Source: Psammoneis japonica (Eukaryota). Taken from it: 64,000 bases of DNA. Numbering within the stretch: the stretch's first letter is position 1; each line of letters begins with the position of its first letter. Both the position numbers and the translations under genes were made by a program. Below, one piece after another: positions 4,450-59,677 of this stretch. The notes under the pieces were generated by a model, which was not told where the DNA came from, did not search any database, and saw nothing but the letters and a program-made list of their open reading frames with translations. The stretch spans positions 508,874 through 572,873 of the forward strand of contig QPGO01000029.1 of NCBI GenBank assembly GCA_008632985.1, in the 5' to 3' direction.

Positions 4450-4632
4450 TGTGGACCTCTGCCACCAACTGGAGTTTAGAGCTGGAGTCAGCTGCACTGT
4501 TGGAGCAGCGGCATTGCTGTGGCTCTCCCATCGTTCTTTGGGAGGAGTGCCGCAGCTGCACGAAGTGCGCAAGAGACAACGGTCAACGCACAGACTCACG
4601 ATGAGCGAATGCTCGCTCGCTCGCTTTTCACG

Positions 4633-4816
4633 TGAATAAATGCTGATGTGCTGTCACGTGTGTAGGCAGTTTAAGCGCTGTTGGCGATTGGTCCACTGTC
4701 GCTTATTTAGTGGCCCCAGCAGCGTAACATCTCACAATTCTAGAACCTGTTGATGCTGTTCAACACTCTGTCTTGTCTTACACCCAATTCTTAGCTATCA
4801 TGGCAGCATTTATTCA
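4633..4816 (+). repeat. 5' LTR of the family B element
   Basis: Starts TGAATAAATGCTG and ends CAGCATTTATTCA (13-bp inverted termini). Aligns ungapped with 11144-11327. Confidence 0.95.
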
Positions 4817-5362
4817 CTTTGTCAGAGCCAATGCGCTGTGATGTTCATCGCCTGGAACGGGCATCGCGAACGGTGCGACGGTGTCGTTGCGATCGATCGA
4901 TTTTTGCGGCAAGCGCCATGTTGGTCCCATGGTTGCTCGCGCAATCGCTGAGTCCTTTACACACATCAACATTCATGGATATGAACGACATGCTCTTGGA
5001 GACCAGAGCTGTGATCCGTTGGACATGACGCTAGAGTGTGGAATGTTTGATCACGTGGATGGAACATGTTGGCTAAGACACATGAACATTCGTGACAAAG
5101 CCAACATGATGATTTATGTGTGGAGGTCTGTCATTTGATCACACACATTTCATTAATCAAAATACGTTGTCAAATTGTTTGGACACTGCACATGTGGACA
5201 CATGTCTGTTGGATGTCATTGCTTGGGAGCAACACCGCCTGCTCGCGGGTTCGCCAAGTAGAAACCGCCAAATCGGCACGAGAGCCACACATTTTTCTCA
5301 CTTTCCTCCACTCACACAAGTGGATGCTCACGCGTCGAAACGCGAACAACTGCTGATGCACC

Positions 5363-6782
5363 ATGGCCGCTGCCGCAGCCTTTGCCACCTGTCTTGCGCG
5401 TTGTGGACACAATGCACAGACGCGTGCCCACATGGCCCGCCAAGGCTTCACTGCGATCGAGGACCTGGAACAGGTTCCTTTGACGGAAATCACCGACATG
5501 ACCAAGGGCATTGTGAAGAGCGTGGATGCCGCCGCCAACCCCCAAGTCCGCTTTCCCCACCTGGCAAATCGCAAGCTCAAGGCACTGCATGCATGGATTG
5601 ACTGCCGCAGAGCTTGGAATCAAGAGCCGACCACTGCTCTCTTCACTGGCAACGTTGTTGGGACATGGACGGCACGTCTGACGGAACTGGAGCAATTCAA
5701 GTCCGCCGACTCGGATGACGAATCGGCCGCCAAAACCGCCGTGGAACTCAAGAACCTGTGTGACTGGCCTGCCTTCCAGGAGCCATTGGAGACCGAACTG
5801 CGTCACCACCGCAGCACCGTTGCCGGAGTGCCCCTTGTCCACCTGGCCAGGGAACATGAAGAAGTCACCGCCGAGATGTTGGCTGCTGCCCACACCACCA
5901 TTGACGAGGACCTTGTTGCTGCCACCTGTCTTGCAGGAGCTCAGTGTGCGCAGGATGGGCAACACCTGCATGACCTCTTGAAGAAGTTGGTGATGGGGGG
6001 CCCGGATGGGCTTTTGTCAAACCTTCCAATCGCAATCGCGATGGTGCACTGCCTTCTTCGCACTTGAGAGGCAGGCGGAAGGATCGGCTGCCACCACCAC
6101 CCAAAAGAACCGTGCACATGCACAGATTGCTGCTGCAAAGTGCACCGGATGGGGTCGATTTACATTTGACCAGTGCACCCAGCGTCATCAAAAGGCTCAC
6201 AAGGACTTGTCTGAGCTTGACGAACCGGTGGCCGAGACCAAGAAGGTCTCTGACTTTCTGAAGGGCATCTCCAACCCCAGGTTGGAAACTGGAAGAGCGC
6301 AGTGGATGGAGACCCAACGAAGCGAGCGGACTTCTAGGCATGCCAGCAGCACATGAAAACTCTGGTCGAGAATGCCAAGAACCGCAATGCCGACGCTTGC
6401 GGGGTTGCATCCATCCAACGCCACAACAATCGGCGCACTGACCCTGGTGGGAAGCACCAACCTAAAAAGGATGAGCCCAGAATCCGGGCAGGCCATTGTC
6501 CTGTTGAAGAGTGGAGTGCTCTTGACGGTCCTGAATGAGAGCAAGTCCAAAAGCTCCGCGATGCCAAGAAGGCCGAGAAGAAATGCAAAGCTGCTGCTGC
6601 GTCCTCGGAGGCTGAGTCGGTCGATGCCGAAACTCGCGCCGCAAAGAAAGTGGCTGTTGCCGAGCCTGCTTCTCAACCCACTGACACACCAGAAAGACTC
6701 TGAAGAGCCTGACAAACCTGCTGCCAATGCAGGCACCCAGTTCGGACGCAGTGCGCACAAGAAACCTCAGAAGGAGGAATGA
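5363..6782 (+). pseudogene. Frameshifted gag-like gene of the family B copia
   Basis: Overlapping ORF pieces 5363-6067, 6006-6356 and 6353-6538/6372-6782 between the LTR and the protease. Motifs resemble diatom copia gag (DWPAFQEPLETEL, KKVSDFLKGISNPRL). Confidence 0.7.
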
Positions 6783-9700
6783 ATGGTTGCGCCAGCACTG
6801 GGAGGCATGGAACCGATTGTTGCCACACCTGCTGGCACTGTTCATTTGTCCAGGCGATTCTTGAAGGATGTGCACGTCTCTCCATCATCTGCTGGAAATT
6901 CAGATGACGAAGCCACCACTGATTTGGACTCGCACGCTGACACGTGTGCCGTTGGGTCCAATTTTGTGATGTGCTCTGACATCGACAGAACTGTCATGGT
7001 TCACCCCCACTCCGAAGAGCACGCACCAATGGAAAACATTCCCATTTGCACGGCTGCCACCATGTGGGTTGATCCAACTGATGGACAACCATGCCTGCCA
7101 CTGGTCCACGAGGCTGTGTTTTTTGGGGACAAGATGACCAACACCCTCCTGTGCCCCAACCAACTGCAAGCGAATGGGCTGATTGTCCACGACACCCCTC
7201 GCCAGTTTGATCCGACTGGCACACACTCCATTTCTTTCCCTGACTCGAAGATCAGGATCCCATTGTGAATGCGAGGTGTTGCTTCAGTCTTTGATTCACA
7301 CAAGCTGACAAAGGAGGATCTGGAGAACCTCCCCCGGCTGGAACTCACATCACCCCTGAGATGGGAGCCTTCTGCTGATGCCCTGGCACAAAAGGAGGAA
7401 GCGCATGCATGTGCCAGTGCGCACCAAGGATCAGCAAAGTCGGACGGACGGTCGGCGATGATGAATGCGACCAGGTGTGTCGCTTCCATTCATTCACACC
7501 AAACGTCCTATCACGACGAGAGTGTCATTGTGGATGCCAATGACGACGAATCACTGCATCACCGCCTGGTTGCTCAGGTGAATGTCTCCCACAACGACAC
7601 TGAGGGAGACGGGCTCCACGACCGGCATGACTTAGATGTCCACCCGGATTGTGCTGAGCGGAGACGGGTGTGTGCACTTTCGACCTCGAGTCGTGCATCG
7701 ACTGTCACGCCCGAGATGCTCTCTAAAAGGTGGAACATTGGCCTGACGGCTGCCAAGAACACCCTTGGAGTGACAACCCAGGCAGGGGTCCGCAATGTCT
7801 GCACACCATCTGAACAGAAAGTCTGGAAGAAAGCCCCTTGGCTTAAGTTCCCTGCTGTCAAGGGACGACTCTACTCCGATCAGATGTTTTCGAAGGTTAA
7901 ATTGATGCATGGCGAGACAGGAGGAAGCGTGTTTACCAACGGAAGAGGGCATGATGGGTTCCATCCTTGGAAGAGGAAACAGGACCACCCAGACGCCGTC
8001 ATGTCATTCACACATGACGTTGGCGCGCCGCAGGTCCTTGTGTCGGATGGCGCACCGGAAATGGCAGAAGGCCAGACCAAGGAGATCTGCAAGGAACACA
8101 GGATGCACCAGGAGGTGTCCACTCCACACAGCCCATGGCAGAACCTGGCCGAGGCATCCATTTGTGAGTTGAAGAAAAGAGTCCGTGTGACTCTGCGCCG
8201 GACTGGCGCTCACAGGCGACTTTGGTCCTGCAGCGCCAAATGGACATGTGATGTCCGATGCATGATTGCGACTGGCACATCGGACATGGGAGGACGAGTC
8301 CCAGAAGAGGAGGTGACAGGTTCAACACCCGACATCTCTTCCCTCTCTCTCTTTGATTGGCATCAACCTGTGCATTGCTGCATGCCTGTGGCGGAGTTCC
8401 CACACGAAAAGAAGTGCATTGGCCATTGGCTCGGAGCAGCTGACAATTGCACTGACGACATGGCATTCATTGTTTTGCCCGAATCAGGCAAACCCATCAT
8501 CCGGAAGGATGCGTGGGCCATGCCGGAGGATGACCTTAAAACTCCGGCGATCCTGACAGATCTTGCATCGGTCGAACAAGCTTTGATCGAACGGCTCAGC
8601 ATCCCGGAAAAGGATGCCAGTGCTGACTTCCCTGAACTCCCTGATGACTTCATGGACGAATGGGACGATGCCGTTGAACCCGTGGAACCCGACGCTTCCA
8701 AACTGGAAGCTGATGAGTGCACCCCGGAAGGGCCAGATGAACATCTCACGGCTCAAGTCATGTTGCCACGAGGAGGCGAGCTGACTCATGCTAGGGTCAT
8801 TGCACGCAAGCGAGACAGCGACGGGGTTCCCATCGGTGCTAGGAACGACAACCCTGTCCTAGACTCGAGGATTTACGACGTGGAATTCCCTGATGGATCC
8901 ACTGATTCCTGTGCTGCCAACATAATTGCAGAGAACCTGTTCACTCAGATCGACTCTGAAGGGAATGCCCACCAGATCATGAAGGAAACAGTCGATCACC
9001 GACGTGATGCCCGTGCTGTGACGGCCGATGATGGGTGCACAACGACTGAGACTGGCAGGCGTGCTCCTGGGAGGACGACAGTGGGCTGGGACCTGCAAGT
9101 CAAATGGAAGGATGGGACCACATCCTGGGTTCCTCTCAAGGATTTGAAGGAGTCCAACCCAGTCGAGGTTGCTGAGTGCGCTGCAGCGAACAAAACAGCC
9201 AGTGAACCAGCCTTCAACTGGTGGGTCCGAGACGTCTTGCATCGCAGGTCGAGGATCCTGAAGAAAGTCAAGTCGCGTTGCTGGAAACGTGCGCACAAGT
9301 TCAGAATTGAACTCCTGAAATCTGTTGAGGAAGCCATGGAGACAGACAACAGAATGGGGACCGACTTCTGGTTCAAAGCCATCAAGAAGGAAATGCATGA
9401 CGTCATGCCTGCGTTCGAATTCCGCGATGACGATGCTGCGCCGGTCGGGTGCAAACACATTGACTGTCACATGATCTTTGACATCAAGAGCACTCTCCAA
9501 CGTAAAGCGAGGTTCATGGCCGGAGGCCATCAAACCAATCCACCTGAGGAATCGACACATTCCAGCGTGGTGTCGCGTGACAGCATTAGGATGGCATTCA
9601 CTGTGGCAGCTCTGAATGACCTGGAGGTCCTGAGCGCTGACGTTCAGAATGCCTGCTTGAACGCACACACTGAGGAAAAATGTCACACCACTGCTGGCCT

Positions 9701-10991
9701 GGAATTTGGGAAGCAGAACGAAGGAAGGCCGGTGATCATTGTCCGTGCCTTGCATGGTCTCAAATCTTCAGGTGCAAGATTTAGGGAGCATGTGGCAGCC
9801 ACTCTGCGGGACGCTGAATTCGAGTCTTGCAATGCTGACCCGGACATCTGGATGCGGGCTGCGGTTGAGCCGGATGGCTTCAAGCACTGGGAACATGTGC
9901 TTGTCTACGTGGATGACTTGTTGTGCGTCTCCCATGAACCTCAGAAGGTCATGGATTGCATGAGCTCCAGGTGCACGCTCAAGGACGGAAGCATCTGCAA
10001 GCCGGAAGAGCACTCAGGCGCCCAGATTGGAAAGCACCAGCTGTCTGACTCGGATGGTGAGACACACTGGGCCATGTCCTCTGACCTTCGTGTCAAAAGG
10101 GCATTGGCTGACGTTGAATTGGAGCTTAAGAAAACTGACAGGCGTCTTCCGACAAAGGCGTTGACACCCTTGAGCTCGGGACACAGGCCTGAACTGGATG
10201 GTTCACCCGAGTTGAACACCAAAACAGCCAACTGCCATCAAGGCCTTGTCGGTGTGCTGTGGTGGGTGGTTGAACTGGGGCGAGTGGACATTTTTGTCGC
10301 TGTCTCGCTCATGTCCTCCCACTTGGCGGCACCACGAGTTGGACACCTGGACGAGGTGCTCCATGTCTTTGCATGCTTGAAGGCTCATTCTAAGTCTGCG
10401 CCAGTGTTCGATGACACTGAGCCCGTCTTTGACAAGAGTCGCTTCACCAAGTGTGATTGGGAAGAATGTCACCCTGGCGCGGCTGAACCAATGCCGCCAA
10501 ATGTGCCAGAGGCACGCGGGAATGGCATGACTGCCACTTGCTTTGTCGATGCTGATCACGCCGGATGCCGTGTGACGTGCAGGTCCCACACTGGGATCCT
10601 GATCTTCATCCAACGAGCGCCCATCTTGCATTGCTCTAAGCGGCAGAATGCCACAGAGTCCTCTGCTTTTGGGTCGGAGTTCGTGGCTATGAAGACTGCA
10701 GTGGAGCAAATTGAAGCCTTGCGTTGCAAGCTTCGGATGCTCGGAATCCCCATGGATGGGGCCACCAACGTTTTCTGCAACAATGAAGCTGTCTTCAAGA
10801 ACTCAACTAAACCAGAGTCCACTTTGAAGAAGAAGCACAATGCAATTGCCTGTCACAGGACTCGTGAGGCACAAGCCGCTGGAATGGTGCGCATTGCTTG
10901 GGAAGATGGGCACACGAATCCAGCGGACACACCAACTGAGTTGTTGCCTGGACCGAAGCTCCGGGAAATCATAAGTCACATCCTGTGGTGA
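6783..10991 (+). pseudogene. Copia pol polyprotein (aspartic protease, integrase, RT, RNase H) with one in-frame stop at 7266-7268
   Basis: Protease LDSHADTC; integrase SDGAPE...PHSPWQNLAEASI; RT DVQNACL, ALHGLKSSGA, VYVDDLL; RNase H FVDADHAG, SSAFGSEFVAM. Conserved Tyr residues are mostly replaced by Cys/His. Confidence 0.93.
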
Positions 10992-11143: not shown

Positions 11144-11327
11144 TGAATGAATGCTGATGTGCTGTCATGGATGCAGGCAGTTTAAGCGCTGTTGGCGATT
11201 GGTCCACTGTCGCTTGTTTGGTGGCCCCAGTGGCGTGACATCTCACAATTCTAGAACCTGTTGATGCTGTTCAACACTCTGTCTTGTCTCACACCCAATT
11301 CTCAGCTGTCATGGCAGCATTCATTCA
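11144..11327 (+). repeat. 3' LTR of the family B element
   Basis: TGAATGAATGCTG...CAGCATTCATTCA; 14 mismatches to the 5' LTR by manual alignment. Confidence 0.95.
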
Positions 11328-13421
11328 CACGCACAACATTCTGGATTTGAGATTCCAACATGTTGCAATGTGATGGATTTCCAGATTGAGGATGAGGATG
11401 CCGCAACAGCATTTTTTCTGAGAAGCGTTTCTCCATTGCGTTGCCTCGAGACGATGAGGCCATCTCGACCATCTCAATGTTTGCTCATCGTGACACTCAA
11501 TGCACCACAAGGTTCAGGATCACATTTTGGCCACGTCCAACCTTTTTGACACCAGCACACAGTCCTGCGAATCATCATCAGTCATACGTCTCCGAGGTCC
11601 AGCAGACTTCACCAGATGCGGCATGCGGTGGCGCAGGCCAGAGTCTGCTGAAGACTTCTCCCTCCTTTCGCGCCTCATCCATCTGTCTCGAATCAAGGCA
11701 GAATGAAGTCGATGACGCCAATGACAGCGCAAAACTGCTGGGGAACACAATCGGCTCAACACTTTCTTTGCCTTCATGGCACAGCATAAGCTGCTGCGGC
11801 TGGACGACGCGACACAGGACCAGTTGATGGTCTGATTGTCTGATTGTCAAGGAAAGGCATTGTCAATGTCGCGCCCACGAAATGCTGTAGAATCGAAGCT
11901 TGCCAGACTGTGCTACAGCATGAAAGACATCCAAGTGAAAGATGACAGGTGTGGTGTTGGTGTTTGCGCAAGTGACGACAAAGGCATTCTCGGTCGAGTT
12001 CATGCAAGTGGAGGCCACGACAACGCACTGCATCAGGCGATGACATGAAAATTTCCACCGCAGCTAGTCCGACATGCATGTGCACCTCGTTGTCATCTGG
12101 CCAGACAACATGAGACGAAGAAGAGGGACTTCTCCAGAATGAGAAACTTCACGTTTCGCAAGACGACACTACAACCGACGACACATTTGACACCATTCAT
12201 TTGGGAGTGCCATCTTCATTCCCATGCTTTTGTGGGCTGTTAAGTGCAGCATTTGCATCTTCGACTTTCTGTGCTCCGACTCCCTGAGCCGGAAGCTCAT
12301 TTGCACACCGCCTGCTCTACATTGCTCTGTGAATTGATGAAAACAACCGACACTGCACTTTTGGGTAATGTGAGTGCCACGGCCTTGCCCGCCACTCTAT
12401 TTGATTCATGGAAATGTGCTCGCTCGTTTTGATTCAAGGTCGTGTTTTGGGCATTCTCGTTGAACCAGCCATCGGTGCTGGCAAGCAATTGTCTTCAGGT
12501 TTCTTGCGCGGTCTTGGGTGGCAGAGATCTGGTTGTCTTCATTCCACGGCATTTTTGTTGGGCAGGACGAGGAGCTTGCGATTGGATGTGGTCACCTGTC
12601 CCAATGCTTGCCGTCGCAGCAATTCATGTCCCGATGTGATTTCTTCCATGATGGCTCTCGGGCTCAACGAAACCTTGGGTCTTTGTCTTTGCACTGGGTG
12701 AGGCATCCGTGAAAACGGCTTGAAGGCTTGTCCCATTGTCACAACTGTCATGGAGTGCGTCGAAGACCTGTGCTTCTGGCTCGTCTTTTGTCAACTTCAG
12801 AAGCTGCGTGCTCCAACACGGTGATCATGGTCTCTTGCAGATGTCTCAAAAGAGCGGATCTGGAGGTTTTCTCAGCTCTCAATGGCAGCTGCTCTTAATG
12901 TGGCGTCGGGCTTCTGGTGTGTCGCTGTCATTGACACTCTCAGTGCAAACATGGGGTGAAGTTGACGCCGGCATCTTCAGGGCATCCTACCGCACAGTGT
13001 GTTTGTGCTGGTCAATGGCACCTCCTTGGCATCTGCGGCAGGGATCGAGTTCAGGCAATCATGTCGGCGAGAAGCAGGCTGGACAGGTTGGAATCGTCAT
13101 GGCATTTGCATTGTTGTTGGTCATGCCCGCCATCGCTGTCACCAGTGTTGGAATTCTCAGAGAGGCACTCATTCAAGACAAAGAGTTTCTCATGCCACTG
13201 GAAGAAGCAAAAAGCCATTGGCCGCTGCCCACTTTTTCGTGTGTTTCCGCCGCAGCCATTGAGCGCATGCTGCATTCCACGGGACGGATGGGGGCATCTT
13301 TTGGATGGGAATCATTGCAAGCTTACGAGCTGGCAATGCTGATGCATTGTTCATGACAACCGCGGACTGTTGCAATTGCTCTCTCCCGCTGTGAGGGACG
13401 TTTTTCCACTGCTTGGGGTTT

Positions 13422-14405
13422 TCAGATGTACACACGCAGCCGATTGCAGTTCATGAACCGAGATGAAAACCATGATGGTCCCTGCGCAAGACGTGCCTTC
13501 TTGTGTCCCAACTTCTGCTCGAGCTCTTCCATGCGCTTGCGGACACGGCGGTGCTCTTCTTGGTTGGCGTCATCTCCATCGTCGTTGCCAGCCTCTTCAG
13601 AAGCAACTGAGCATGCTTGAGCCACTGCTGGCACCGGCTGCGGTGCCTCCTTTTTGTCGAGCAGCAAGCATCGTGTGATTCTGGCATGCAGTTCCGGGAG
13701 CAGACACTTTCCCGTTCCGATCTTGAGGCAGTCGTCGGGAAAGTCTATGTTCTCACCAAGGCCCAGGTTGTCAAGTTTCCAAAGTGACTTCACACAACCA
13801 ATCTCATCGAGGCGGCAGATGCAGGCTTTGTTTGCCATCTTCGTGTCCTGCTGGACTTGATTGTTGATGAGCATGGTGGCACAGGGTTTGGAATCGGAGT
13901 GGGTTCGGAGGTGGTTGACCGTCTTCAGACCATTGACACTCTTCGCATGGGCTTGAAAGTGATCAATGTGACGATTTGCAGCTTGAACTCGACGTTTGTT
14001 GTTTTCATCCTTCTTGTTCTCCTTCTGCTTGATCGTTGCTCGTAGGTTCAGAATCTCCTCCTCCAACTGGACATCCTCCAACTGAATGTCATCAACCAGC
14101 TCCCTCTCCTGTCGCATGCCCTCGACACTGTCTCCCCTGCTTTGGAGACAGCCATCAAATGTGTCGCACAGCTGTGCGTTGTTGCAGTGCACGCAAGTCT
14201 CCAACAGGTCCTCGTCAAACTCATCCGCAGGCACATGGACAAACCTGGAATCGCTAAGTTCCTGAACCGTCAGGCACTCGGCGACGCTCCTCACGTGGCG
14301 CCTCAACATGTTGGGCGTGAAAGCCGCCGCGTGCGCCTCTCCATTGTCAACAAGCATTCCAGCAGCGGCCGCACTGAACATGGTGAATGGCAGCAGAGAA
14401 TGCAA
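13422..14405 (-). pseudogene. Hypothetical coiled-coil/acidic protein, TpA-eroded (probable pseudogene or TE-associated ORF)
   Basis: 327-aa ORF with protein-like composition (RQERELVDDIQLEDVQLEEEILNLRATIKQKE; RVRKRMEELEQKL) but almost no Tyr. No recognisable family. Confidence 0.4.
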
Positions 14406-17400
14406 TGCAACAAATGACGGATGTCAACATTGTGAGGGTGGCTGGGGAGACTCATTTTTTTGCGTGTGGGAAAAGCACTGAATTCGCACGTAGCGCTCAA
14501 GTTGGACTAACGGCTGCGCAGAAAAATGCAGTGCACAAATGCAGTGCTGACTCCAGCTGCAATGGGCATCGACAACGGCTGTGTAGAAAAAGCACTGAAT
14601 TTGTACGCAGCATTCATCATGCACACAAAAGGTGACAACGACAACTTCTCTGCGTAGAAAAATGCACAAATGTTCCAGCACTGATTCTCCACCGGTGACG
14701 GCAGATTACACTGGCGAAACGTGCCAGGACAGACGTTGCATTTTTGTGTCATGCCAGCTACGGTGTGCGTGCACACAGCTCATGCACCAACCATAAACAA
14801 GATGTTTCAGAAGCACGCAACAACACGTTCAATTGGCGATTGAAATGAGCAAATTTGAGTGCGTTTGAGCACATTTGAGCACATCTGAACACATCTGAAC
14901 ACATCTGAACAACAGCACCAAGGGCTGCCATGAAGGTTGTCGGCTGGTTCTGGCAGCCAGCCAAGCAGTGTGAAAAACGAGTTGTTTTGGCACCAGCAGA
15001 TTGGCTTGATTGAAACAGGCTGTTTTGCGCCACTTGGCAAGGGTCAAATGGGTCAAACAATGGCTCTTTTCCATTCTCTCCATGTTGCAAAATGCAAGAG
15101 GAACATGTGCAGCTCTCCAAAAAACACTCTTTGTTCAACCCTCGAGGAGCATGCGGTGCCGGAAGTTTGTTGCAGGGCATTTGCAGTTTTGCCATCTCTG
15201 GTTGAAGCTTTCATGTCTTGCCAACAATCTTTCCTCTTGAGCTCTGCAGCTCTCACCAGGAGTCAAGTGCATTTTGAGCATGCCTGGCACACTCTGGCTT
15301 GGCTGTGTGGCTGCAGCCACAGTCGTCTCTCCAGTGGCTTTCACACACACCCAGAGGAAAATGCCCCCTCAGCTCTTGGCAAAAGAGCACAAGGCTGCAC
15401 TGCCTCCCTGCTGGCTGCACAGGGGTTCACACCCAAAGAAGCCATGGTCAATGCATCTGCAGCCCCATTTTACAGTTTGCACCAGGTTTCCACCAAGCCT
15501 GCAGCTCAAATTAGATGGCAAGAAAACAAGGGGGGCTGTTCATTGGCAGGACAGTGTGTGCCATCAATCAACAGACCAAAGATTTCACAAGTCTCTCCAG
15601 CCTCTTGAACCAAGCTAATCTGGTGCAAATGCAAAAAAAAAAAGCATCTGTCAGCCTTTTTGAGATCACAACAACCACATGACATGCTCTTGCTTTGCAC
15701 GCACCATGTGCCAAAGCAACAGCACAATTTTCAAAGTGAAATGGCCAGCTGACCACTTCTTGATGGCTTTGCCATGCTTGTCAAAAAAAGCCTTTGAGCT
15801 GTTTCTCCATCAGGTGCAAGAAATGGCAACAATGTGCAAGTGCTGTGGGGCTTGGTGCCACCTTTGATGCTGGTGCAAGCAGACTCCTCATCTGCTGTCA
15901 TCTGAAGATCATGCCACCAAATCAGCCCACTGCAAATGATTTGGGGAAGACTCTGCAAAGAGCATCTTGAAGCATGTGATGCATTTGCTCTGTTTCTGCA
16001 TCATTGTCATCTCTTGCAACTGCCTGGTGAGCTCAAGCCCAAGGCCCATGAGTTGGGCTGCACTGAACTCACTGGTGGTCATGGCATGGCAGGCTGCCAC
16101 ATCCCCTGTGTGCCAGATGCCAGAATGTGCACTGCATGCTGAGATGCCAAGGGATGGGTGATGGGCCTTTTGAAAAATTTGAAAATCAGCAAAGAGGTTG
16201 AAGATTGCAATTGATGTGAAAAAGTGCATGCTGGAAAAGAGCCACAGCAATTGGTGCATCATGCACACATCTTCAAGACAGGGCAAACATTTTCTCCTGG
16301 CAAAGCCCAGCACATGCCATTGCTGCAAGTTGTGTTGCCACATTCATCATGTTTCTTCACACCCATGTGCCTTGATTTTGCCACCAACTCATTGTGGGCA
16401 AACATGTCCATCCATGTTGAAACATGTTCACCCATGTTGATTGCACACTGCAGCCATTGCAAGTTGCTGAAAGTTGTTGGGGAAAAGCAGCAGAACCTGG
16501 CAAAATGGTGCCAAAATGAGGAGTTGTGCTGTTCCCATGGGCACAGTTGCACAGATCTTTAAAGACCTTCAAGAGAGCCTGAGTTGTCTTTTGTCATCAC
16601 TTGGCAATGGCACCCAAGGACAGCACCTGCATTCTCCAATGAAGAAGACAAGGCAGTTCCAGCAACAGCCTGACAAGTGACCACTCATCTGAGAGCAAGC
16701 CCTTTGCAAGCAAGAGCCGCCAAAGCATCATTGACAACGCGAAGCCCCCCAGCCAAGCAAAGGCTGAAAATTCAGGAAAGGAGGCTGATCTTTGCCAAGA
16801 GACCTTTTTGCAAAAGCTCCTCCTCCTTCTCCTCACTGCTTCCAACATGGCAGAAGACCTTTTCCCATGTTCTCATGGTCGCATTGGCCAACCAGCCCTT
16901 GCTGGTGCCGGCATTGCAGCTGCTGGTGGCACATGACCAGCCCATGCTTGTGCTGCAGCTGCTGATGGTGGTGATTGCAATCTGCCAGCAAGGACCAGTG
17001 GAAACTTGTTTGTGTCTGTCAGGCCCACCAAAGCTCTGGCAGACTTGGGCACATGCTGCATCATCATCCACAAGCTGACCATCCTAAGAAGAGTGGGGAT
17101 CTCTTTGCTCAAACTGTCTCCAATGTTGACATTGGCCTGCATGCCCCCAACTCAAACTGACCATCCCTGGTGTGACTGATGCACACAACTTCAACAAGAT
17201 CAACCTTTGGGCAATTTTGAGTTGTGGTGCATGGGTCTGTTGACTCCACACAGTTGGTTGCACAAGCATCCAGTGTGGCTCATGAGCTGGAGGAGGACCC
17301 AGTCCACAGATGGCAAATCACAAAGACTCTCTGCATCCTTCCCAATGGAGCACATTGTGCCAAAGTGACCACATCACAAGGTGCCTCACCCCCAGACACC

Positions 17401-19626
17401 ATTGTCAACAAAACCCTGTTTTGCCTGAGCACTGCTGCTCCAGGCTTGTCATCACATGAGGAGCAGCAGTTTGTTCCTCTTCCCTGGTGAGAGTTTGCAC
17501 ACAAGAAGAAAGCCCAGGCTTGCTCAGGATGTCTGTGACTGTGACAATGTTGATGATGTCTGCTTGGCAATGCAAGGGATGGATTTGAACCCTTGGCACA
17601 CATGCACCACTTGGTGTTTGCAGTCTGGCTGTCACAGCATGTGCACAAAATCTTGTCAACCTTGTGGGCATGCAAGCAAATGCCAATGGCAAAAATGACA
17701 GAGTGGTGGTTTTGTTGAAGCAAATGATGTTGAGGAGGAGGTGGACAACAATGATGTCAAGGTGGAGGAGGAGACAATGGCTGACAACTTGTCACAAAAT
17801 CTCCTGGAGGAGCATCTTGATGATCTCCAGACAACACTCAGGCTGACCTCAGCAGCAGTGCAGTGGATGACTTGATTGATGCCAATGAAAGCATTGTCAA
17901 TGATGATGGTGCCCCAAGCAATGAGGAGCCAATCATCTTTGTTGCCAGCAGGGCTTGCTGCAAAAAGCAACCCCACACAAGTTGGGTCCAACCAGTGCTG
18001 CAAGCAGAGCAGGCATCTTTGCAAGGACCATGGACTTGCACCTGGCAAGCTGGTGCTCAAGCAGCACAAAAACATGGACAGTGCACAGTGTTCTTTTGAG
18101 CATTGTGGTGACAAGCAACACTGTTTTGCTTTCATTTGCCCATGGCCATTTGGAGGTGCAAGGTGGGCTGGCCAGTGATTCTTTTTCTTGAAGCCCTGCC
18201 CCAATGCATTTTTCTCTTTCCTGTGCCAAGCTTGGTGAGTGGGTGTGTTCTCAAATCATTTCAAGGCAAAAAAGCAGATGTGTTCAGCATGCTGCAGGAT
18301 GGCAGATGCCAGAAATCACATGGAAAAAGTGTGAAACACCAGCCAGCAGAAATTGTCCTCAAGGTTCTTTGCCCTTTTGTCTGTGCAATGCAAGTCCCAA
18401 CAACCAACTAACCACACTCTTCCATGCAGTGCTTGGCAAGGTCAGTTGTTGTGTGGCAGTTGTCAATGCAGAGGATGTGGTCTTTCTTGTGAGAGAGGCC
18501 ACATTGATGGGTCAGAGATGAGCCTCCAGCATCTTGGGTGTGGTGTTGGTTTCTTCTGCATTGTCTTTTCTGCTGTGGATGTTGAAGAAATGCACACAAG
18601 CAGACTCAGCACAGCACAGAGCAAACACCTTCACCACATGCTTGATGGGCTTTGCCAGCATGCACTGGACAAAGGTGATGGCTCTCTCTCTCCTTGCAAA
18701 GAATCACACTGTCATCTGTCATCATCAGCTTCTTGCCACAGCTCCATCCTTTCTGAAGTTTGGAAGACAGAAGATTGAGTGTTGGAATGACTTTGAAGAA
18801 TGGGTCATGTCCTGGCAAACCTTTTGGGTGTGCTCTTGAACTCTGAGCAAAGTGAACATTTTCTGAAACCAAGTGCATCATGACTCATCACATTGCAAAT
18901 CCATGGGCACCCCCCAGCCACATGGCTCATGCTCCCAACAATGCAAGTGCAACCAACCAGAGCCCCTTGATCTGCAAAGCCTTGCTGTGGCAAGCAAGGC
19001 CAGCACACAACATCCTCTCATGAACTTGAATTTTTTCAGTTCCTGTTTGGCATCACACCTGTGCTGGGGAGTGGGATTCTCTTTGTAGAGCCTCTGAAAG
19101 TGTGGCAGGATTTCCCTTTGTTGCATGGCACCTCTTCTGTGGCAGACCTCTGATGCTGCACTCATCTCTGGTGCATGTGCAAGTCAAGTGTCCCAGGCAC
19201 CCCCAGTCTTCAGCATCTTGGTCTGCTTTCCAAGCTTCATGAGTGGCTTGTGCTGGCTGTTTCTCTGCTTGCAGAAGGTGTGCTTGTTTCTTTTGTCCAG
19301 ATTTCTTGAACTGAGACTGTCGAGAGTGACTTGTCCCATCACTTCTTGAACCTGTCACAGAACATGATGACAAGAAATGGCACCCCACAATCTGCCAACA
19401 AGTTGCGAGCATTTCCAGCAGCTGACCACTTGCAAACTTGCAGACAATGTCAAGCTGCAAATTGAGCAGCTGTGATTTGTTGGGGTGCAGCTCTCACACA
19501 ACCTTGGTGTCACTTCATGATGACACACCAGTGTGGATCCACAAAAAAGTTGCAATGCTTTCGCATTTCAGCCCACCACAGTGTGAGTGCTTTTGTGAGT
19601 GGAGCACCCTGCACATCCACTCCATG

Positions 19627-22600
19627 TGTTAGAGCATCTGGAGTGAGTGGGAAACAGAAACTCAGAAAGGAAATGTTGAAGATTTGGTGACACCTGACAA
19701 GCAAGTCTGCTTGTTGCCAATCTTGCTGACCTCATTTTGTCTCACTCTTTGGAGTGAGTCATCTGGTTTGCACAAATCTCATTGTGGCATCAGCAGGCAC
19801 CTGCTGCATTGTGAGATTGAAGTTTGTTGAGGACTTTCAGGCAAACTGCAGCTGCCACAGCAACCAGGACAAGTGTGACAAGCAGCACAGGAAACCTCAG
19901 AGGACCCCCTTTTGGTGACATTGATTTGTTGGTTCAACATTCACTCCAAATGGTCACAAGCACTGCATTTGGTGCATGGAGACAGTGACCTCCATTCAAT
20001 CATTTGACACACAGGAACCTGCCTTGTGAGCAGCAGAGAAGGAGGTGAATCTGGCAGAGGAGGCCAAGGCATCAGCCAAGGCAGAGGTGACAAGTCTTTC
20101 TGTGACAAGAACAAGAAGACCAACCTGAAGAAGAGCTTCAAACCAGAGTTTCATCTTTCATCAATGAACAGCAACTCATGCAATTGAATGTTTGAAGATG
20201 CCAATGAAAAGATCATCAATCACATGTGCAGAAGGAGCATGGTCAAGGTGCACATTTTGTGGGGTCTCTGGAAGGTGTGGCACACAGAAATTTCTCTGGC
20301 AAGAGTCCTGCATTGGCACTGCCAATGACAATGGTGCCAGAACCAGGTCAAGCAGATTGCCAAAGTGTGGCAAACAAGAGAGCATGAGAAGAAAGACAAC
20401 TCAAGCATGAGTGCAAGATCAAGCTGCACAACCACAGTGAGAAAGTGAAGAAGCTTGAAGAAAACAAAACCACTGCATTTGCAGTGATCAGTGATCCTGG
20501 ATGATTGCTGCACCAAGCAAATGAAGCAGAGAGTGCAAGCCAACCATGGTCACCAGAGGATCAGAGATGACCCCCCCAATCAAGCTGCTGAAGCTGATCA
20601 TCCAGTCACCAACACTCAACTCCATGAGAGGTTGACATCCATTCCATGCACTTGCCAAGTCCCTGAAGCACATGCTGCAAGTGAAACAATTGGAGGACGA
20701 GTCACTGAATGACCACCTGTCAAGATTTAAGAATCAATGAGATGCCACAAGCAAAGAAGGTCTTGGCAGCAAGATGCCAGATGGACTCATCAAAAACACC
20801 GAGGAGCACAAGGACTGCACCACCCCAGTGGAACAGACCACATTGAAAGACCCTGCATTCAAGACATGGATGACACACCTGTTTTCAGAGAACAGCAATG
20901 ACTGCTTCTGCAAAAGAGCCTCAAGAAGAGCCTTGCCAGAGACTGCAGCCTGGGGAGGGACTCACATCAGAAGACCCTGGAGAAGACAATGGATGCACTG
21001 CTGAGCCACCCAAAGGACAACAATCCATGCAAGAGATGGAGCAAGAAGAGTGGTGAATGTCCAAGTCTCAGGAACTAAGACAGGACTGACAACAGGTCCC
21101 AGAACCCACAAGATCAAAGTCATGCCCAGAGTGGTGATCAAGGTGGCAACACAGTGTGCTGTTGTTGTGGTGTGAACCAAACCACAAGTTCCCAGACTGC
21201 AAGTGTGAGGATGAATCCCACAGAAGAGCTGGTGCAAGGACAGTGGAAAGAAACTGGGTGCCAGGGGACATGGTCACACACAAAGAGACAAAGACCAGCA
21301 TTCATCAGCGAGCATTGACAATGCTGGCATTGACACCTGCAGGTTTCTTGGTGTTCCTCACCAAGAAATGAGGTGTTTGCACAAAAGGGCAAATTGTCTG
21401 CAATGGCAAACTGACCCCAGAATGGTTGGACAAAGATGAATCAGCGAGCCCTGCTGAACCCCTTGAAGGAATGTTGACAACAGCAATCATTGACACCCAT
21501 GAAGGACACAGTGAAATGAGCACCAATGCTCCAAACGCATTTGTGCAGATGACAACACTGGAGCCTGGAGAAGGCAAAGACCAGGTTGTGATGAAGATTG
21601 CAGGAGCACCAGTGGACATGCCAGCAAGCATTGATCCCAACCTGTGTGGACCTTGTGTGGTTCCAGAGAAAGGCAAGAGAGTCCCTCATGCCCAAGTCAT
21701 CAGAGCCATCTGCAGTGTGCCAATCTTGGCTCTGCTGTGGTGCAATCAATTTTTGGAAAGACTTGGAGAAAACAGGATTCAAGTTTGGCCCACATGTGAT
21801 TCTTTGTGCATTGCCAATCATGCAGTCAATGGCAAGCAGTGCAGCCCATGATTTAATTTCATGTGGATGACCCCATTGTTGAGCCACAAGAACCCAAAAG
21901 CAAATGACAAGTTTCTGAGCTGGTCAAACAAGATGAGCTGCAGCCATGGTGAAATTGTTGCTGCATGAGGGAAGAGACATGGCTGTTCTGGCATGACCCT
22001 GGATTTCAGCCAGAAGGGCAAAATGAGAGTTGACATGACAGACTGTGCTTGCAAGATGATTGACCAATTTCCAGAAAAGTCAAACAGTGCAGACATTGCT
22101 GTGACACTGGCTGGAGAAAAGACTTTTGACACCTGTGGGACAAGCTCATCAGATGCAAAGGCTCAGACCTTCCACAAATGTGGGTGGCCAAGAGACTGTT
22201 CCTGTCCAAGAGAGGCCAAAAGGATGTGCACCTCGCTGTCACTGCATCATGCATGGAAGTGAGAGCTCAAACACAAAGGACCTTGGAGTTGTCAAGTGGC
22301 ATGTGGACACATCATTTTTGCAGCACATCCCAATTTCAAGAGCCACGCCAAAGGAGGAGTTGTGACAATGGGTGGTGGAGCAGTGCAGGCCACTTCAAAG
22401 TGCAAGAAGCTCCACACTCCAAGAAGCACAGAAGCTGAACTTGTTTGAGTTGACAATGCCATGGCTGTGACACTGTGGACCAAGCTGTTCTTGGAACACC
22501 AAGGGCATCCAATCAAACATCCTGCACCAGGACAACAACAGTTCCGTCCCACTGGCAACTGATGGGTGCAATTGTGCCGGCAAGCAATCGCAAGCACTCA

Positions 22601-24270
22601 ACATTTGGCATTTGCTTGTTGCTGATCAGATCAAGAAGGGCAACTTAAGAGTGCAGTGTTGTCCTGCCAATGACACACTGGGGGAACAGGCCCATGGAGA
22701 GCCCTGTGGTTGCATGGGTGTCACACAACATGGAAGCTGGTGGAAACCTTGATGGAAATGGATGCCAGTCATGAAGTGCGACAATGTCTCACTGCTGCCA
22801 CACCAATGTTCTCCATTTTTGGTGACAAAGGGATTGGACCCCCACCCAAACACACTGGAGCATGCCACTGAGGCACACAAGACCAAAGATTTTTGGCAAG
22901 TCCTGGGAGCTGATTCCTGGGGACAGAACAAGCAACTGCATCTGTGTGAAGGATCGACCTCCAGCAGGTGAACAGCATTTGTGGAGCCCAAGTGGTGGGC
23001 CAGAGCAAGAGGAAAAAAGATCAGCTTTGCCTTGACAAGACCAACATTGACAAGTCATGTTGGAAACCACACATCAGTTTTCCCACCTTTGGCATGAGCA
23101 AGAATGGGATTTGTGGTCCCCTCATGAAGCTCCAGAAGCTGGATCCTGTCAAAGCACAAGATCGATGAAGCCTCATGCTGGATGCTGAAGGAGTTGTTTG
23201 GGATGCCAGGAACTTGGCAGCATTTTCTTGCCATGAGACCTGATGACCACACCTCCTTGAGAGGTGGCATTGCTGCACTGACATGGTGCATCTGGACTTG
23301 GCTCCAGAGAGGACAATCAATGGTTGGGTCATGGACCAGCTTGAGCATGTGGAAGACAAGAATGAGAAAGAGAAATGTCATTGCACTCATGTGGAGCACT
23401 TTGTGAAGAGTGCACAGAGAGCTGCACGTGCATTGGATGACATGATTGGCCACAGCACCGATGGCAAGAATGCTCATTTGCATGTTTGTGAGTCACAGGA
23501 TGTTGAGAATCCTCAAGTGAGTGGCAGTGACACCAAGAGTCTTGAGCAGACTGATGAGCCACAAGACCACAATGAGTCTGATGAACACATGAACCACGTG
23601 AACAGCAGAACATCACTGCAAGTGTCTGCCAGACACACACCCCACACTGTCACCACATTGGGCACATGAGCAAGAGCTCCCACCAACAAGGATGTGGGGA
23701 AGCCAGTCCTTCATCTCAAGCATGTGAGCTGGGCAAGAAATGAAGTCACTGCAGCAAGGGTGAGAAGGACCTCCAAGTTGTCAAGTGGCATGTGAGCACA
23801 TCATTTGCAGTGCGCCCCAATTTCAAGAGCTGTGCTGGAGGAGTTCTCATGACAACAAGCAACAGAGCAGTGCAGGTCATCTCAAAGTGCCAGAAGCTCA
23901 ATGCCTGAAGCAGCATGGAAGCTGAACTTCTTGGAGTCAATGATGCCAGGGCTGTGATGCTGTGGACAAAGCTGTTCATGGAACACCAAGGGCATCCAAT
24001 TGACAAAAACATCCTGCATCAGAACAACAAGAGCACTGTCCTGCTGGAGACTGGTGGGCACAAGAGTGCCAGCAAGTGGTCCCAAGCACTCAATGTGTGG
24101 CATTTCTTTGTTGCCAATCCGATTGAGAAAGGCAACTCACAAGTGCAGTGTTGTCCTGCCAATGACATGCTTGGAGAGTTCATGACTGAGCTGTCACAAG
24201 GCAAGAAGTTTTTAAAGTTTAAACAAGCCATTGTGGTGGGTGGCTGGCTTCAAGCGAGACAGGCATGAGT
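19627..24270 (+). mobile_element. Decayed, internally deleted copia family A, copy 2
   Basis: Putative LTR 19627-19781, PBS-like TGGCATCAGC 19785-19794, gag remnant ~20040-21290, RT remnant (DKDESASP...MLTTAIIDTHEG...PNAFVQ, 21426-21851; MTLDFSQKGKMRVDM), RNase H remnant (EAELLGVNDA...HQNNKSTVLLE, 23915-24268). Similar to 1-4449 in the opposite orientation. Confidence 0.8.
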
Positions 24271-26276
24271 CCTTTTTTTTGTGATGTCAGATGAGAACAT
24301 CAATGCATGTGGGCAAAAGATCCCTGACACACTGATGTGCACCAAGCCAAATGGTTCAACAGCAATCACAATCTGTGGCTGCAATCGATTGATGAAAAGA
24401 TGAATGACAACTGTGATTTCAGATTGATCACATGAGGTGACCAACAACTGCAAGTTTGAGCTGGGGAACGGTGATGACATCCTCACCCAATGGCAGCCAT
24501 GGGACCATTGGGGTGGGTTCTGCAACCTTGAAAAGCTGGCCTGCAAGAACTTGAGAGATTGACGTGGTGCAACAAGGAACATGTCCAAGGGTTGCATGAG
24601 AGCAATGCATGGAGATTGGCACTTCATCCCAGTCCTTGCATTCATTGCAACACTGTTGATGCATGTGAAGTCAAGAGGTTGTGTGAGAGAATGAGGATCA
24701 AGGATCCAAGCCAGTGTTCCCAGCCTGGGGAATGGACAAGAAGGGCCTGTGGAGAGCCCTGTGGTGGTTGCAGAGCTGCCACAAAATGAAGGAGCTGCAG
24801 GTTGCACCAGATTTCTTGCAGATTCTCACTGTCATGCCTCATTTGGACATGCCAACAAGCAGTGGGCTTGCTGACTTTTCCATTGTTCTCATGACTGTGG
24901 TGCACACAAGTCTGCGAGCACCGCACTTGTCTCCAATTTGGATGGCCTGCCGTGCATCTGCTGATGAGTGTGCACATGCTGTCAGCATCGTGTTTTTTTT
25001 TCATGACAGGCACAGAATTGCCAAAATGACATTTTGATTGTCAAGCAAGGCAGGCAACAGTTTTGTTGACAACACACAATGCACCATGTGTGACTTTCAG
25101 CTGGGAGTGATGACACGTGTCCCAGCCAGCACACATTGACACGGCAACACACCATTGGATCTGTCATGCCAAATTGGTCTGCTGCACTGCAACTCATTGC
25201 TTTAGAAGCCTTGTGCTTGTTGATTTTTTGGCCAACAACACTGCAGCTTTGTTTTTTGTTCCTCTGTTGACTGCATGATGCAGTGCGTGCAACGTGCTTT
25301 GTGATCGGACAGCGCGGGAAATCAGGCCATGCAATGGATGGGAGCTCCAAGCCACTGGTGACCAGATCTGTGAACAGCTGCCAAGCTCACTCCAAATCCA
25401 TGCTCAGATGGTTTGGAGCAGCTGTCCTTCCTTGAAACTGTGTGTTGTTGACACCTGAGCTGAATTTGCCGCCTGTGGGCACCTTGGCCGGTGAACCACC
25501 CTCCTCCTTTCCTCAAACCAGCAAACGGCAATGGGGTCGGCATTGATTTTGCACTGCTCTTTTTCTGAGCTGAAGTTGCACCAGAGGGTCTGGTGGTTTC
25601 ACTCCAGTTTGGCAGATCTTCGGCTGCATTGTTGTCATTGTCCAACTCGCCACCCTGGCTGTGTCAGCTGCAGAGCGGCCTGAAAGTCTGCTGTCTCCAG
25701 CAAAGACTCGGCGGGAGCAAATTCACTGGTTGTGTCAGCTCCTGACCACTCCAGCAATTTGTCATCTTCCAGGATGCCTTCATCACATGCAGAGCACAAA
25801 TCATCACTGTTCTTGCTCTTGTGGGTGCACTCCACAACAACCGATCCATCGTCAGTGTCAAAAACAAAGCCACACCTTGAGCTCCAAGCTGCAAAACACC
25901 ATGTCATGCTGGCATGGCATCTTCCTCATTTTCATCACTTCAAAAATGCCAGAGTGTCAGTGCGAGTGCAGGAGAATGCAACAAAGCAAGAACGGCTTAA
26001 ATGTGCTATGTTTTGGTTGCCCTGCGGTGTTTTGCATTTTTCGATGCTGTTTCATGCAATGTGCTGAGAAAAAAGCAAAAAAAAAACGCGTGTTCCGAAG
26101 TACGAGCTATGCAAGCTGTTATTCTCGCTCCGTATGAACGTCGTTCCAGTTCTGCGGCATTCTACGGCCTTCGCCGCGAACAAATCTTTCACAAAGACGA
26201 ACGCCATTGCCGATCGCCATTGCCGATCGCCGCTGCGCTGCTTTTGCCATCGATTGGTTGGTCACATTGCAACATC

Positions 26277-27226
26277 ATGTTTGGTAACGTTGAAGCTGTC
26301 GGAAATAGCATTCTTGATATAGGCGCTGGTGGTAGCTCCGCAGTCAAGCCTCAGCCGATGATGCTTGGAGAACCCGGGGCGTTTGACATTCCTAATGTTT
26401 CAGATGTGAGTACTACGTTGTGTTGTTTCTTATCAGTGCCGATTGTAGCTTCCTCTTTTGTTTGTATGTGGGCGACTCACCTGTAACGCCTCGTAAATAC
26501 ATGCTTATTGTACAGCCAGCTCGTTACTGCCGCTCCAACACGGCGTCTGCGTCGGGCAACAAGGACTCGGCGCAAGAAGTCAAGTTTGCCAAAGGTACCA
26601 CGACGCTCGCCTTCAAGTTCAACGGCGGAATCATTGTATCGGTAGATTCTCGTTCCACCATGGGAAATTACATTTCCTCCGGTACAGTCAAGAAGATTAT
26701 CGAGATTAATCCCTTTCTGTTGGGAACCATGGCTGGCGGTGCTGCTGACTGCTCCTTTTGGGAGAGGAACCTCGGTGTACAGTGCCGCATGTACGAACTC
26801 CGCAACGGACGTCGCATCTCTGTGGCGGCAGCGTCCAAGCTGCTTGCAAACACCATGAATGCCTACAGGGGTTATGGACTCTCCATGGGCACCATGATTA
26901 CCGGTTGGGACGAGACCGGACCCCAGCTCTATTATGTGGACAATGACGGTACACGCCTCAAGGGAAAGTACTTTAGTGTCGGATCCGGTTCGACCTATGC
27001 CTACGGTGTGCTCGACACGGATTATCGAGAGGATCTTACGGTGGAAGAGGCCATTGACCTTGGAAAGCGCGCTATTTACCATGCCACTCATCGGGACGCG
27101 TTCTCTGGCGGCATCAACAATCTCTACCATGTCACCAAGGAGGGATGGGTAAAAGTTCACGCGATTGATGTCAATGACATGCACTATGAGTTTGCGGAAG
27201 AAAGGGCAGCTCGTGCGGCAGCGTAA
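26277..27226 (+). CDS. PSMB5: 20S proteasome subunit beta type-5 (two exons: 26277-26405, 26516-27226)
   Basis: Propeptide cleavage motif [41 protein letters not shown]. Phase-0 GT...AG intron 26406-26515. Confidence 0.96.
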
Positions 27227-27363
27227 TGTGTTTGCGAGCGAAAACAGCACTGCTGTAGTAGTCGGCATTCATCATTTAGGACTTTCTGAATTAGTCGTAC
27301 AGCACCTATATCCCGCAGATTGTGTGTTTGTATTGGATGTTGTTGCATCTAGATATTATGTTG

Positions 27364-27531
27364 CAGTGTGTGATGCTCTCAAATAGTGCTGGACATTGCC
27401 TCAGAAAGAAGTTTACTGTCTAGCGCCTGTTTGGCGGCAAAGACAGTCAGTGTGTGATGCTCTCAAATCGTGCTGGACAGTGCCTCAGAAAGAAGTTTAC
27501 TGTTTAGCACCTGTTCGGCGGCAAAGACAGT
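27364..27531. repeat. Tandem duplication of an 84-bp unit
   Basis: CAGTGTGTGATGCTCTCAAAT...GGCGGCAAAGACAGT at 27364-27447 and 27448-27531, with a few mismatches. Confidence 0.9.
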
Positions 27532-41207: not shown

Positions 41208-43423
<2,216 letters not shown>

Positions 43424-59600: not shown

Positions 59601-59677
59601 GTGTGCCCAGCAACAATTTCTTTGACTACAACATCCATGTGGAGCATCACGTGCTAATGAGGCGTCCTGTATGTTAA
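56623..59677 (+). CDS. ABC transporter-like protein (membrane region plus one ATPase domain), multi-exon
   Basis: Walker A GGNGSGKST, signature LSGGQQ, Walker B VLLIDE, H-loop VIYH. Hydrophobic upstream exons with GT-AG introns. Start uncertain. Confidence 0.82.

Follow-up and report, generated by a model that had tools for sequence, protein, structure and literature searches.

We found that a Ty1/copia long terminal repeat (LTR) retrotransposon of the diatom Psammoneis japonica has lost most of its TpA dinucleotides to TpG and CpA. The element lies in a 64,000-nt stretch of contig QPGO01000029.1 (assembly GCA_008632985.1, positions 508,874 to 572,873 of the forward strand), which we refer to as the window and to whose first letter all coordinates refer. 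We interpret the pattern as post-integration, region-confined hypermutation of DNA that turns TpA into TpG/CpA (A:T>G:C at 5'-TA-3', on either strand) to near saturation in a nuclear copia element, and we put the probability of this reading at about 0.8. The signature extends beyond the 1,240-amino acid (aa) open reading frame (ORF) in which the original prediction had placed it, covering most of window positions 1-41000 and including non-copia repeats.

Polarised change in the pol frame

The ORF forms part of an element of ~6.7 kb (~4633-11328), which we assign to the Ty1/copia LTR retrotransposons on the basis of a match to RVT_2 (PF07727, E=3.5e-12, 46.9 bits, cutoff 31.6) and of 185-bp direct repeats with TG...CA ends and CACG flanks. 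Its predicted features are:

4629..4632, + strand, target-site duplication CACG (second copy at 11328-11331 if the LTR ends in CA)
4633..4817, + strand, 5' LTR, 185 bp, TG...CA, with 11 TA
5363..6067, + strand, upstream ORF in another frame, without Pfam match; candidate gag by its position only
6783..7268, + strand, N-terminal pol frame with the block LDSHADTC, which is near-invariant among relatives; ends at an in-frame TGA (7266-7268)
7269..10991, + strand, 1,240-aa pol ORF with an integrase-like region, the RVT_2 reverse transcriptase, and an RNase H region
11144..11328, + strand, 3' LTR, 185 bp, TG...CA, with two TA left, both in the context YTAR (R, purine; Y, pyrimidine)

The complete pol frame comprises ~1,400 aa and starts near 6783, with the 1,240-aa ORF as its C-terminal portion; alignments of relatives to the element begin at ~6846-6909. 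At the position of the in-frame TGA, 15 relatives vary, with E, S, K, A, T, or G in the aligned column. A degraded match to the rve integrase core (residues 247-289, E=0.0097, 16.6 bits, under the cutoff of 32.6) lies upstream of the reverse transcriptase, which would fit the copia gene order, and PF00665 is matched in 2 of 120 listed relatives. A protein search with the ORF returned 1,603 relatives at E<=1e-3, the best being 70% identical. The 120 of these that were listed, one of them from Fragilaria crotonensis, share 56-70% identity across residues 640-1240, and by similarity only the element appears to be of the diatom copia ('CoDi'-like) type. No second copia copy was found within the window by tblastn with four copia proteins. 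Directly 3' of the 5' LTR, positions 4818-4830 read TTTGTCAGAGCC; in copia elements, primer-binding sites that pair with initiator tRNA-Met include TATCAGAGC, and if this sequence holds here, the putative primer-binding site of the element would itself bear a TA>TG change.

The ORF contains only four Tyr (0.32%; positions 81, 202, 536, and 880), the number counted in the original prediction, together with 3.14% Cys and 4.83% His. The 120 listed relatives are far richer in Tyr (2.86-4.59%, mean 3.62) and average 1.28% Cys and 2.41% His. At the nucleotide level, the ratio of observed to expected dinucleotides (o/e) in the ORF is 0.12 for TpA, 1.65 for TpG, 1.33 for CpA, and 0.70 for CpG, and the ORF retains 23 TA in total.

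The changes were polarised against an alignment of 60 relatives, which are the first 60 of at least 1,300 aa among the 120 listed; shorter sequences and the remaining long ones were excluded. Six motifs deviate from the majority of these relatives just as had been quoted (NAYL>NACL, LYGLK>LHGLK, YLG>HSG, RYK>RCK, AYHR>ACHR, and LADLLTK>PADTPTE). Their codon contexts are consistent with single TA>TG/CA steps, including Lys>Glu across a codon boundary (t followed by GAG, residues 760 and 1224) and Leu>Ser at residue 916 (TCA), and the catalytic YVDD survives (Y880, codon at 9906). Counted by the conservation of the alignment columns, the deviations of the ORF are:

Columns at least 95% conserved: 329; ORF deviates at 38, of which 21 TA>TG/CA, 10 CG>TG/CA only, 7 other
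Columns at least 80% conserved: 515; ORF deviates at 92, of which 36 TA>TG/CA, 18 CG>TG/CA only, 38 other
Columns at least 60% conserved: 748; ORF deviates at 168, of which 51 TA>TG/CA, 27 CG>TG/CA only, 90 other

TA>TG/CA steps thus make up 55% of the 38 substitutions at the most conserved columns, compared with 3.4% in intact controls. These controls are ten intact full-length metagenome loci, which show 116 differences at columns conserved to at least 95%, four explainable by TA and three by CG changes; some of the loci may encode proteins of the reference set, which lowers the number of differences and leaves the explained fraction unaffected. One of the seven other changes in the ORF is Tyr>Arg (TAT>CGT), a TA hit on both strands. 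At the 18 most conserved Tyr columns, the ORF has eight Cys, seven His, one Arg, and only two Tyr, whereas the control loci retain 16-18 Tyr. Per column, 0-1 of the 60 relatives share the residue found in the ORF, which speaks against the notion that active relatives naturally carry Cys, His, or Pro at these positions. The proposal that TA>TG/CA drove the changes is therefore upheld, with the amendment that it was not the sole driver, as CG>TG/CA accounts for a further 10 of the 38.

Both strands were hit alike. The Tyr columns conserved in at least 60% of relatives show 13 changes to Cys (A>G when read on the coding strand) and 13 to His (T>C), which means that there is no strand bias. TpA depletion is also not a trait of the copia family, since the 80 best related copia loci from metagenomes have ordinary TpA (o/e 0.46-0.98, median 0.655; median CpG o/e 0.965). 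None of these 80 loci is TpA-depleted (minimum o/e 0.46), a result that says little about the spread of the signature because only intact loci with the best scores were retained and the search patterns were taken from conserved peptides.

Under the genetic code, TA>TG/CA makes no TAA, TAG, or TGA from sense codons, and it turns TAG into TGG or CAG and TAA into CAA or TGA. With no new stops and with TAA and TAG removed, long frames remain open even as codons for Tyr (TAY), Leu (TTA/CTA), and Ile (ATA), as well as boundary codons, are rewritten. The earlier statement that the frame stays open is accurate for the 1,240-aa ORF; it does not extend to the complete pol frame, which is interrupted by the premature TGA at 7266. 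In the copia coding frame between 4818 and 10991, 14 of 16 stops are TGA; across the element's three forward frames nearly every stop is TGA, and the 9-kb region around the element (5-14 kb) holds 25 ORFs of at least 100 aa over six frames.

Timing, regional limits, and flanking bases

The two LTRs of a retrotransposon are identical when the element integrates. Here they are 92% identical, differing at 14 of 185 positions, and at nine of the 14 the 5' LTR has TA where the 3' LTR has TG or CA, all in the same direction. The remaining differences are one CG versus TG, one site (two positions) with CA versus TG, and two others. Identical at insertion and divergent now, the LTRs record changes to the chromosomal DNA that postdate insertion; had RNA or cDNA been edited, they would be alike, and pre-integration editing is thus contradicted. 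The fraction TA/(TA+TG+CA) is 0.234 in the 5' LTR, 0.238 in host DNA, 0.043 in the 3' LTR, and 0.008-0.033 in the element interior. Overall, ~82-89% of the TpA sites of the element have been lost, compared with ~27% of its CpG sites.

The 5' LTR and ~450 bp downstream of it (4633-5260) mostly escaped, with 11 TA in the LTR and eight in 4818-5260. Promoter protection, gene conversion, and the edge of a tract are possible reasons. Clustering of the surviving TA inside the element is not significant (gap coefficient of variation P=0.076; largest gap P=0.155), and patch-wise mutation events within the element were dropped as an idea on these grounds.

Across the window, TpA o/e is 0-0.1 over ~36 kb (most of 1-26 kb plus 28.5-41 kb) and ~0.6 in 41-64 kb. 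TpG and CpA o/e reach 1.6-2.3 in the depleted tracts, and CpG o/e in the tracts ranges from 0.70 in the young copia ORF down to 0.03 in others. Depleted and normal DNA are arranged as follows, with the dispersed repeat pair given at the end:

1 to ~4100, TpA erased, CpG erased (o/e at most 0.15)
~4100-15000, TpA erased; CpG o/e 0.5-0.9 in most 500-bp bins
11333..25997, TpA-depleted flank of the element, without Pfam domains
~15000-25997, TpA and CpG both erased
25998..27505, + strand, island of normal composition with a proteasome-subunit gene (ORF 26396-27223, E=3.8e-53)
27506-28209, 705 bp without TA
28210-28472, normal TpA
28473..33000, + strand, TpA erased; contains tandem copy A
33001-34844, normal TpA
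34845..40976, + strand, TpA erased; contains tandem copy B and partial copy C
41001..64000, normal host DNA and internal control (TpA o/e ~0.6, CpG ~1.0), with SDR, RING, ankyrin, TERT, ABC, and HMG genes
45-4305 (+ strand) and 19729-21710 (- strand), inverted old dispersed repeat pair, 74-75% identical; TpA o/e 0-0.09 and CpG o/e 0-0.15 in 1-4305

Repeats within the depleted tracts carry the same record. Between tandem copies A (30154-33048) and B (34914-37830), 217 of 2,659 aligned positions differ, comprising 82 in TG<>CA doublets (41 sites), 49 CG<>TG/CA, 12 TA<>TG/CA, 34 other transitions, and 40 transversions. Where a single ancestral TA is struck on one strand in one copy and on the opposite strand in the other, a TG<>CA doublet is expected, and the differences between the paralogues, to judge from these patterns, reflect independent hits after duplication. 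Two boundaries of the depleted DNA, at 33001 and 34844, are separated by only 47 and 70 bp, respectively, from the points at which the A/B homology ends (33048 and 34914), which resembles a homology-limited process. In the old dispersed repeat, the stretch 2964-4305 differs from 19729-21049 at 295 of 1,291 positions, 104 of which are in TG<>CA doublets. The excess of TpG and CpA in this pair flips with orientation (CpA > TpG in 1-4 kb, TpG > CpA in 20-22 kb), which may reflect either an element-oriented bias or ancestral composition.

The tandem family, which has a partial third copy C at ~39640-40740, may represent either a host gene that was duplicated or a mobile element that went unrecognised. 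The ORF of copy A (P0147, 30080-32974) has 965 aa with two Tyr (0.21%) and that of copy B (35009-37621) has 871 aa, also with two. An exhaustive HMMER search found 126 distant relatives of P0147 (22-47% identity, median Tyr 2.9%), one of them an 'expressed unknown protein' of Seminavis robusta. P0147 itself had no Pfam match, no Atlas match, and no word-based homologue, and none of 13 relatives scanned against Pfam was over threshold. Two relatives from other public data sets, P0178 (254 aa, Cys 6.3%) and P0235 (204 aa, Cys 3.9%, His 3.4%), have no Tyr at all and may be TpA-erased copies from other organisms or samples.

Survival of TA depends strongly on the flanking bases. The 139 TA that survive in 35.8 kb of depleted tracts were set against 1,149 TA in 26.5 kb of normal DNA, host DNA serving as the background from which the ancestral composition of the repeats may differ. 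Survival relative to normal DNA is 0.02 for RTAY, 0.065 for RTAR, 0.084 for YTAY, and 0.26 for YTAR. RTAY is therefore the most mutable class and YTAR the least (a 13-fold dependence), and the extreme single contexts are ATAT (0.009, lowest) and TTAA (0.42, highest). The ten contexts are well described by a multiplicative model applied per strand, and owing to the palindromic symmetry of TA the flank cannot be assigned to either strand. Among the polarised Tyr (26 mutated, three surviving), all three survivors are preceded by a pyrimidine, and Tyr codons of the TAT type gave six CAT and one TGT. Assignment of the preference to position +1 or -2 of the mutated A was rejected, the trend among Tyr codons being non-significant (Fisher P=0.12).

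The host genes (proteasome, TERT, SDR, RING, and ankyrin) all lie in DNA of normal composition. When 73 ORFs of at least 120 aa in 1-42000 outside the copia element were scanned against Pfam, the proteasome gene was the sole match and 72 had none; loss of Tyr, Leu, and Ile codons, by hiding homology, may explain why ~30 kb of tracts are without Pfam domains. Two tandem 84-nt units that are 94% identical (27364-27531) sit exactly at the boundary between the proteasome island and the TA-free stretch. The TERT gene is a single intronless ORF of 1,117 aa (52491-55841, + strand) with Telomerase_RBD, RVT_1, and TERT_C domains; its best relative is 53% identical, and those from Thalassiosira profunda and an Aulacoseira transcriptome are 39% and 37% identical, respectively. 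These relatives point to a diatom host, not to the alga Bigelowiella natans, and to a species with poor coverage in public protein data.

Chemistry and competing explanations

We take this to mean that, after integration, TpA was converted to TpG/CpA on either strand of the element, that neighbouring repeats and the tandemly duplicated gene family were struck by the same process, and that it stopped sharply at unique host DNA. A slower decay of CpG to TpG/CpA is superimposed and complete only in the oldest repeats. Such a process would amount to enzyme-driven silencing or genome defence aimed at selfish or repeated DNA, of the type suggested for the alga Bigelowiella natans (see below). Its targeting would work via repeats or heterochromatin, and repeat-induced, chromatin-directed, and RNA-guided versions are all conceivable. 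The simplest account of the CpG component is that methylated CpG decays where transposons are silenced, and shared machinery is also conceivable.

For the chemistry, adenine deamination most plausibly ranks first and thymine oxidation second. We tentatively suggest, at somewhat less than even confidence, that an ADAT/TadA-like deaminase converts adenine to hypoxanthine in DNA. The alternative differs in chemistry only: the thymine in TpA would be oxidised by a TET/JBP-type dioxygenase to 5-hydroxymethyl- or 5-formyl-uracil, and mispairing of the oxidised base with G would yield T>C. The signature is symmetric, so that A>G and T>C on the other strand are inseparable from sequence, and these tracts also show decay of CpG, where 5-methylcytosine is a further 5-methylpyrimidine. 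In dinoflagellates, 5-hydroxymethyluracil is enriched at TpA. We nevertheless consider the thymine route unlikely, since there is no evidence of such a modification or enzyme in this organism, and since the loss rates of TpA and CpG in the copia element are uncoupled (~82-89% versus ~27%).

Dedicated editing could be dispensed with altogether if heterochromatin had a non-targeted mutation bias from replication or repair, or if there had been ancient selection against TpA. A mild TpA deficit indeed exists everywhere (o/e ~0.6 in host DNA, 0.46-0.98 in relatives), and the tracts are repeat-rich and probably silenced. Yet the loss of one dinucleotide is near-total with a 13-fold flank dependence, it reached saturation while, TA/CG sites aside, only 2 of the 185 LTR positions came to differ, and selection against TpA does not sit with the destruction of conserved residues of catalytic domains. 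Explanations of this kind are improbable.

A-to-I editing of the transcript by an ADAR- or ADAT-like enzyme, fixed by reverse transcription before integration, would account for A>G with a 5' U/T neighbour and for a retroelement target. It is very improbable because LTRs copied from one template differ at nine TA sites in a single direction, because the strands are equally hit (13:13), and because non-copia flanks, old repeats, and the tandem duplication share the signature, with independent hits after duplication.

The window sequence is reproduced in sequencing data, as one DNA sequencing run contains 59% of the sampled words of 4400-11500; two further runs contain almost none of it, and no RNA run containing it was listed. 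Contig pieces from this run were placed at a likeness of at least 80%, giving 7,349 pieces, of which 1,128 are at least 99% alike, 1,608 are 95-99%, 2,850 are 90-95%, and 1,763 are below 90%. A 281-nt contig matches 4410-4690, the junction of flank and LTR, with no differences at a depth of 63, and transitions make up 989 of 1,082 listed places of change among the pieces. The copia family is thus high-copy, with copies that differ mostly by transitions. Miscalls at modified bases in repeats, with TA as the true sequence, might be suspected where tracts are repeats in which DNA modification is expected and where the only run is perhaps the source sample; such an artefact is hardly credible given the exact junction piece and the 1,128 pieces at least 99% alike, the consistency of the changes per site, the paralogues that differ as TG versus CA, and the alternation of normal and depleted DNA with sharp edges on one contig.

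Several points weigh against post-integration hypermutation as we describe it. The history is drawn from one window, without an observed enzyme, DNA modification, or de novo event, and the supporting DNA run may be the assembly's own sample and so not independent. The 5' LTR lies in the bin where contig depth, summed over the run, is highest, yet it is essentially unmutated, which is at odds with a simple rule whereby all copies of a repeat are hit. The edges of the tandem duplication are informative in only two of four cases, as depletion runs on into adjoining tracts at the others. The CpG decay may be either separate deamination of 5-methylcytosine or a second activity of the same machinery. 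The polarity of Tyr changes by preceding base is mixed (after a purine nine His and four Cys, after a pyrimidine four His and nine Cys; Fisher P=0.12). Finally, ADAR prefers a 3' G and natural ADAT targets have their own context; the order of 3' neighbours implied by the survivors (T>C>G>A) does not match these contexts and leaves a deaminase without positive context support.

Known systems and implications

In the literature searched, TpA-only hypermutation of selfish DNA is reported once, in a preprint on B. natans, and no report of TpA hypermutation in diatoms was found; term searches in papers on diatom transposable elements likewise turned up none. In its accessible text, 230 of 231 mutations in two integrated viral regions of mutation-accumulation lines are A>G or T>C, all on TpA according to the authors, at rates ~1000x background and episodic between lines (Mettrop et al., bioRxiv 10.64898/2026.01.13.699255). 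The same text describes clusters of TpA-depleted windows in the B. natans genome, TpA-depleted coding sequences enriched for reverse transcriptase and DDE domains, and a proposed ADAT2-like DNA adenine deaminase (bioRxiv 10.64898/2026.01.13.699255).

As far as the accessible text of the preprint goes, the two cases share TpA>TpG/CpA on both strands, confinement to discrete foreign or selfish nuclear regions, and enrichment of CpA and TpG. They differ in lineage and target: there, integrated DNA of nucleocytoplasmic large DNA viruses (NCLDV) and virophages in a chlorarachniophyte (a rhizarian), and here an LTR retrotransposon, old repeats, and a tandem duplication in a diatom (a stramenopile). 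No viral genes were recognised in the depleted tracts of the window. The NCLDV region has a Rho of 0.45, compared with an o/e of 0-0.1 here; mutation there is described as exclusively A:T>G:C, whereas CG>TG/CA occurs in the same tracts here (10 of 38 changes). The NCLDV region is single-copy, whereas two tract edges coincide here with duplication edges, and de novo events were seen there, whereas here the signature is known from the sequence of one window. A hierarchy of RTAY over YTAR is visible in the diatom. We therefore place the diatom case with the recently described TpA hypermutation, as new in lineage, targets, saturation, flank hierarchy, and CpG decay.

Fungal repeat-induced point mutation (RIP) resembles the present case in that DNA-level transitions arise in repeats, with each copy mutated independently and transposons inactivated, and possibly also in its sharp edges near homology ends. 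It depends on RID or DIM-2 and acts premeiotically. RIP converts C:G>T:A mostly at CpA, raising TpA and creating stops, whereas A:T>G:C at TpA here removes both TpA and stops; the contrast with a stop-creating process that had been drawn from the ORF is thus borne out, the direction being opposite and TpA erased. Many diatoms encode a RID-related DNMT4 of unknown function, according to the accessible text of PMC9998398.

ADAR and APOBEC resemble the present case as retroelement inactivation by neighbour-dependent transitions of the deaminase type. They act before integration on RNA or minus-strand cDNA, are strand-specific, and leave identical LTRs, whereas in the diatom the two LTRs have diverged, hits fall on either strand, and non-retroelements are included. 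Diatom transposable elements are CpG-methylated (PMC9998398, accessible text), and deamination of 5-methylcytosine would match a CG>TG/CA decay limited to repeat tracts, with o/e 0.70 in the young copia element and ~0.05 in old repeats. Such decay explains 10 of the 38 changes at conserved columns and a single one of the 14 differences between the LTRs, and leaves the TpA loss unexplained.

It is possible, if not quite probable, that diatoms possess a RIP-like defence that recognises repeated or foreign DNA and rewrites every TpA in place, likely by adenine deamination, and that is homologous to or convergent with the B. natans process. If true, TpA editing of selfish DNA would be widespread or ancestral in the SAR supergroup, the enzyme would have left the RTAY-over-YTAR hierarchy as its footprint, and the machinery could have a second activity that causes the CpG loss.

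The signature has practical consequences. Hypermutated DNA yields long spurious ORFs in all six frames and makes dead transposon genes look intact, which is a hazard for gene prediction. Dating by LTR divergence with a genome-wide rate, as in the accessible text of bioRxiv 10.1101/2025.10.24.684338, would overestimate the ages of diatom transposable elements, because 12 of the 14 LTR differences fall at TA/CG sites here. Diatoms are transformable and editable by means of clustered regularly interspaced short palindromic repeats (CRISPR), and knockouts have been reported (PMC9998398, accessible text), which brings the enzyme and the targeting rule within experimental reach. The same signature in a diatom suggests that the process is not peculiar to one alga, and it may be a genome defence that is widespread in eukaryotes and mirrors the RIP of fungi.

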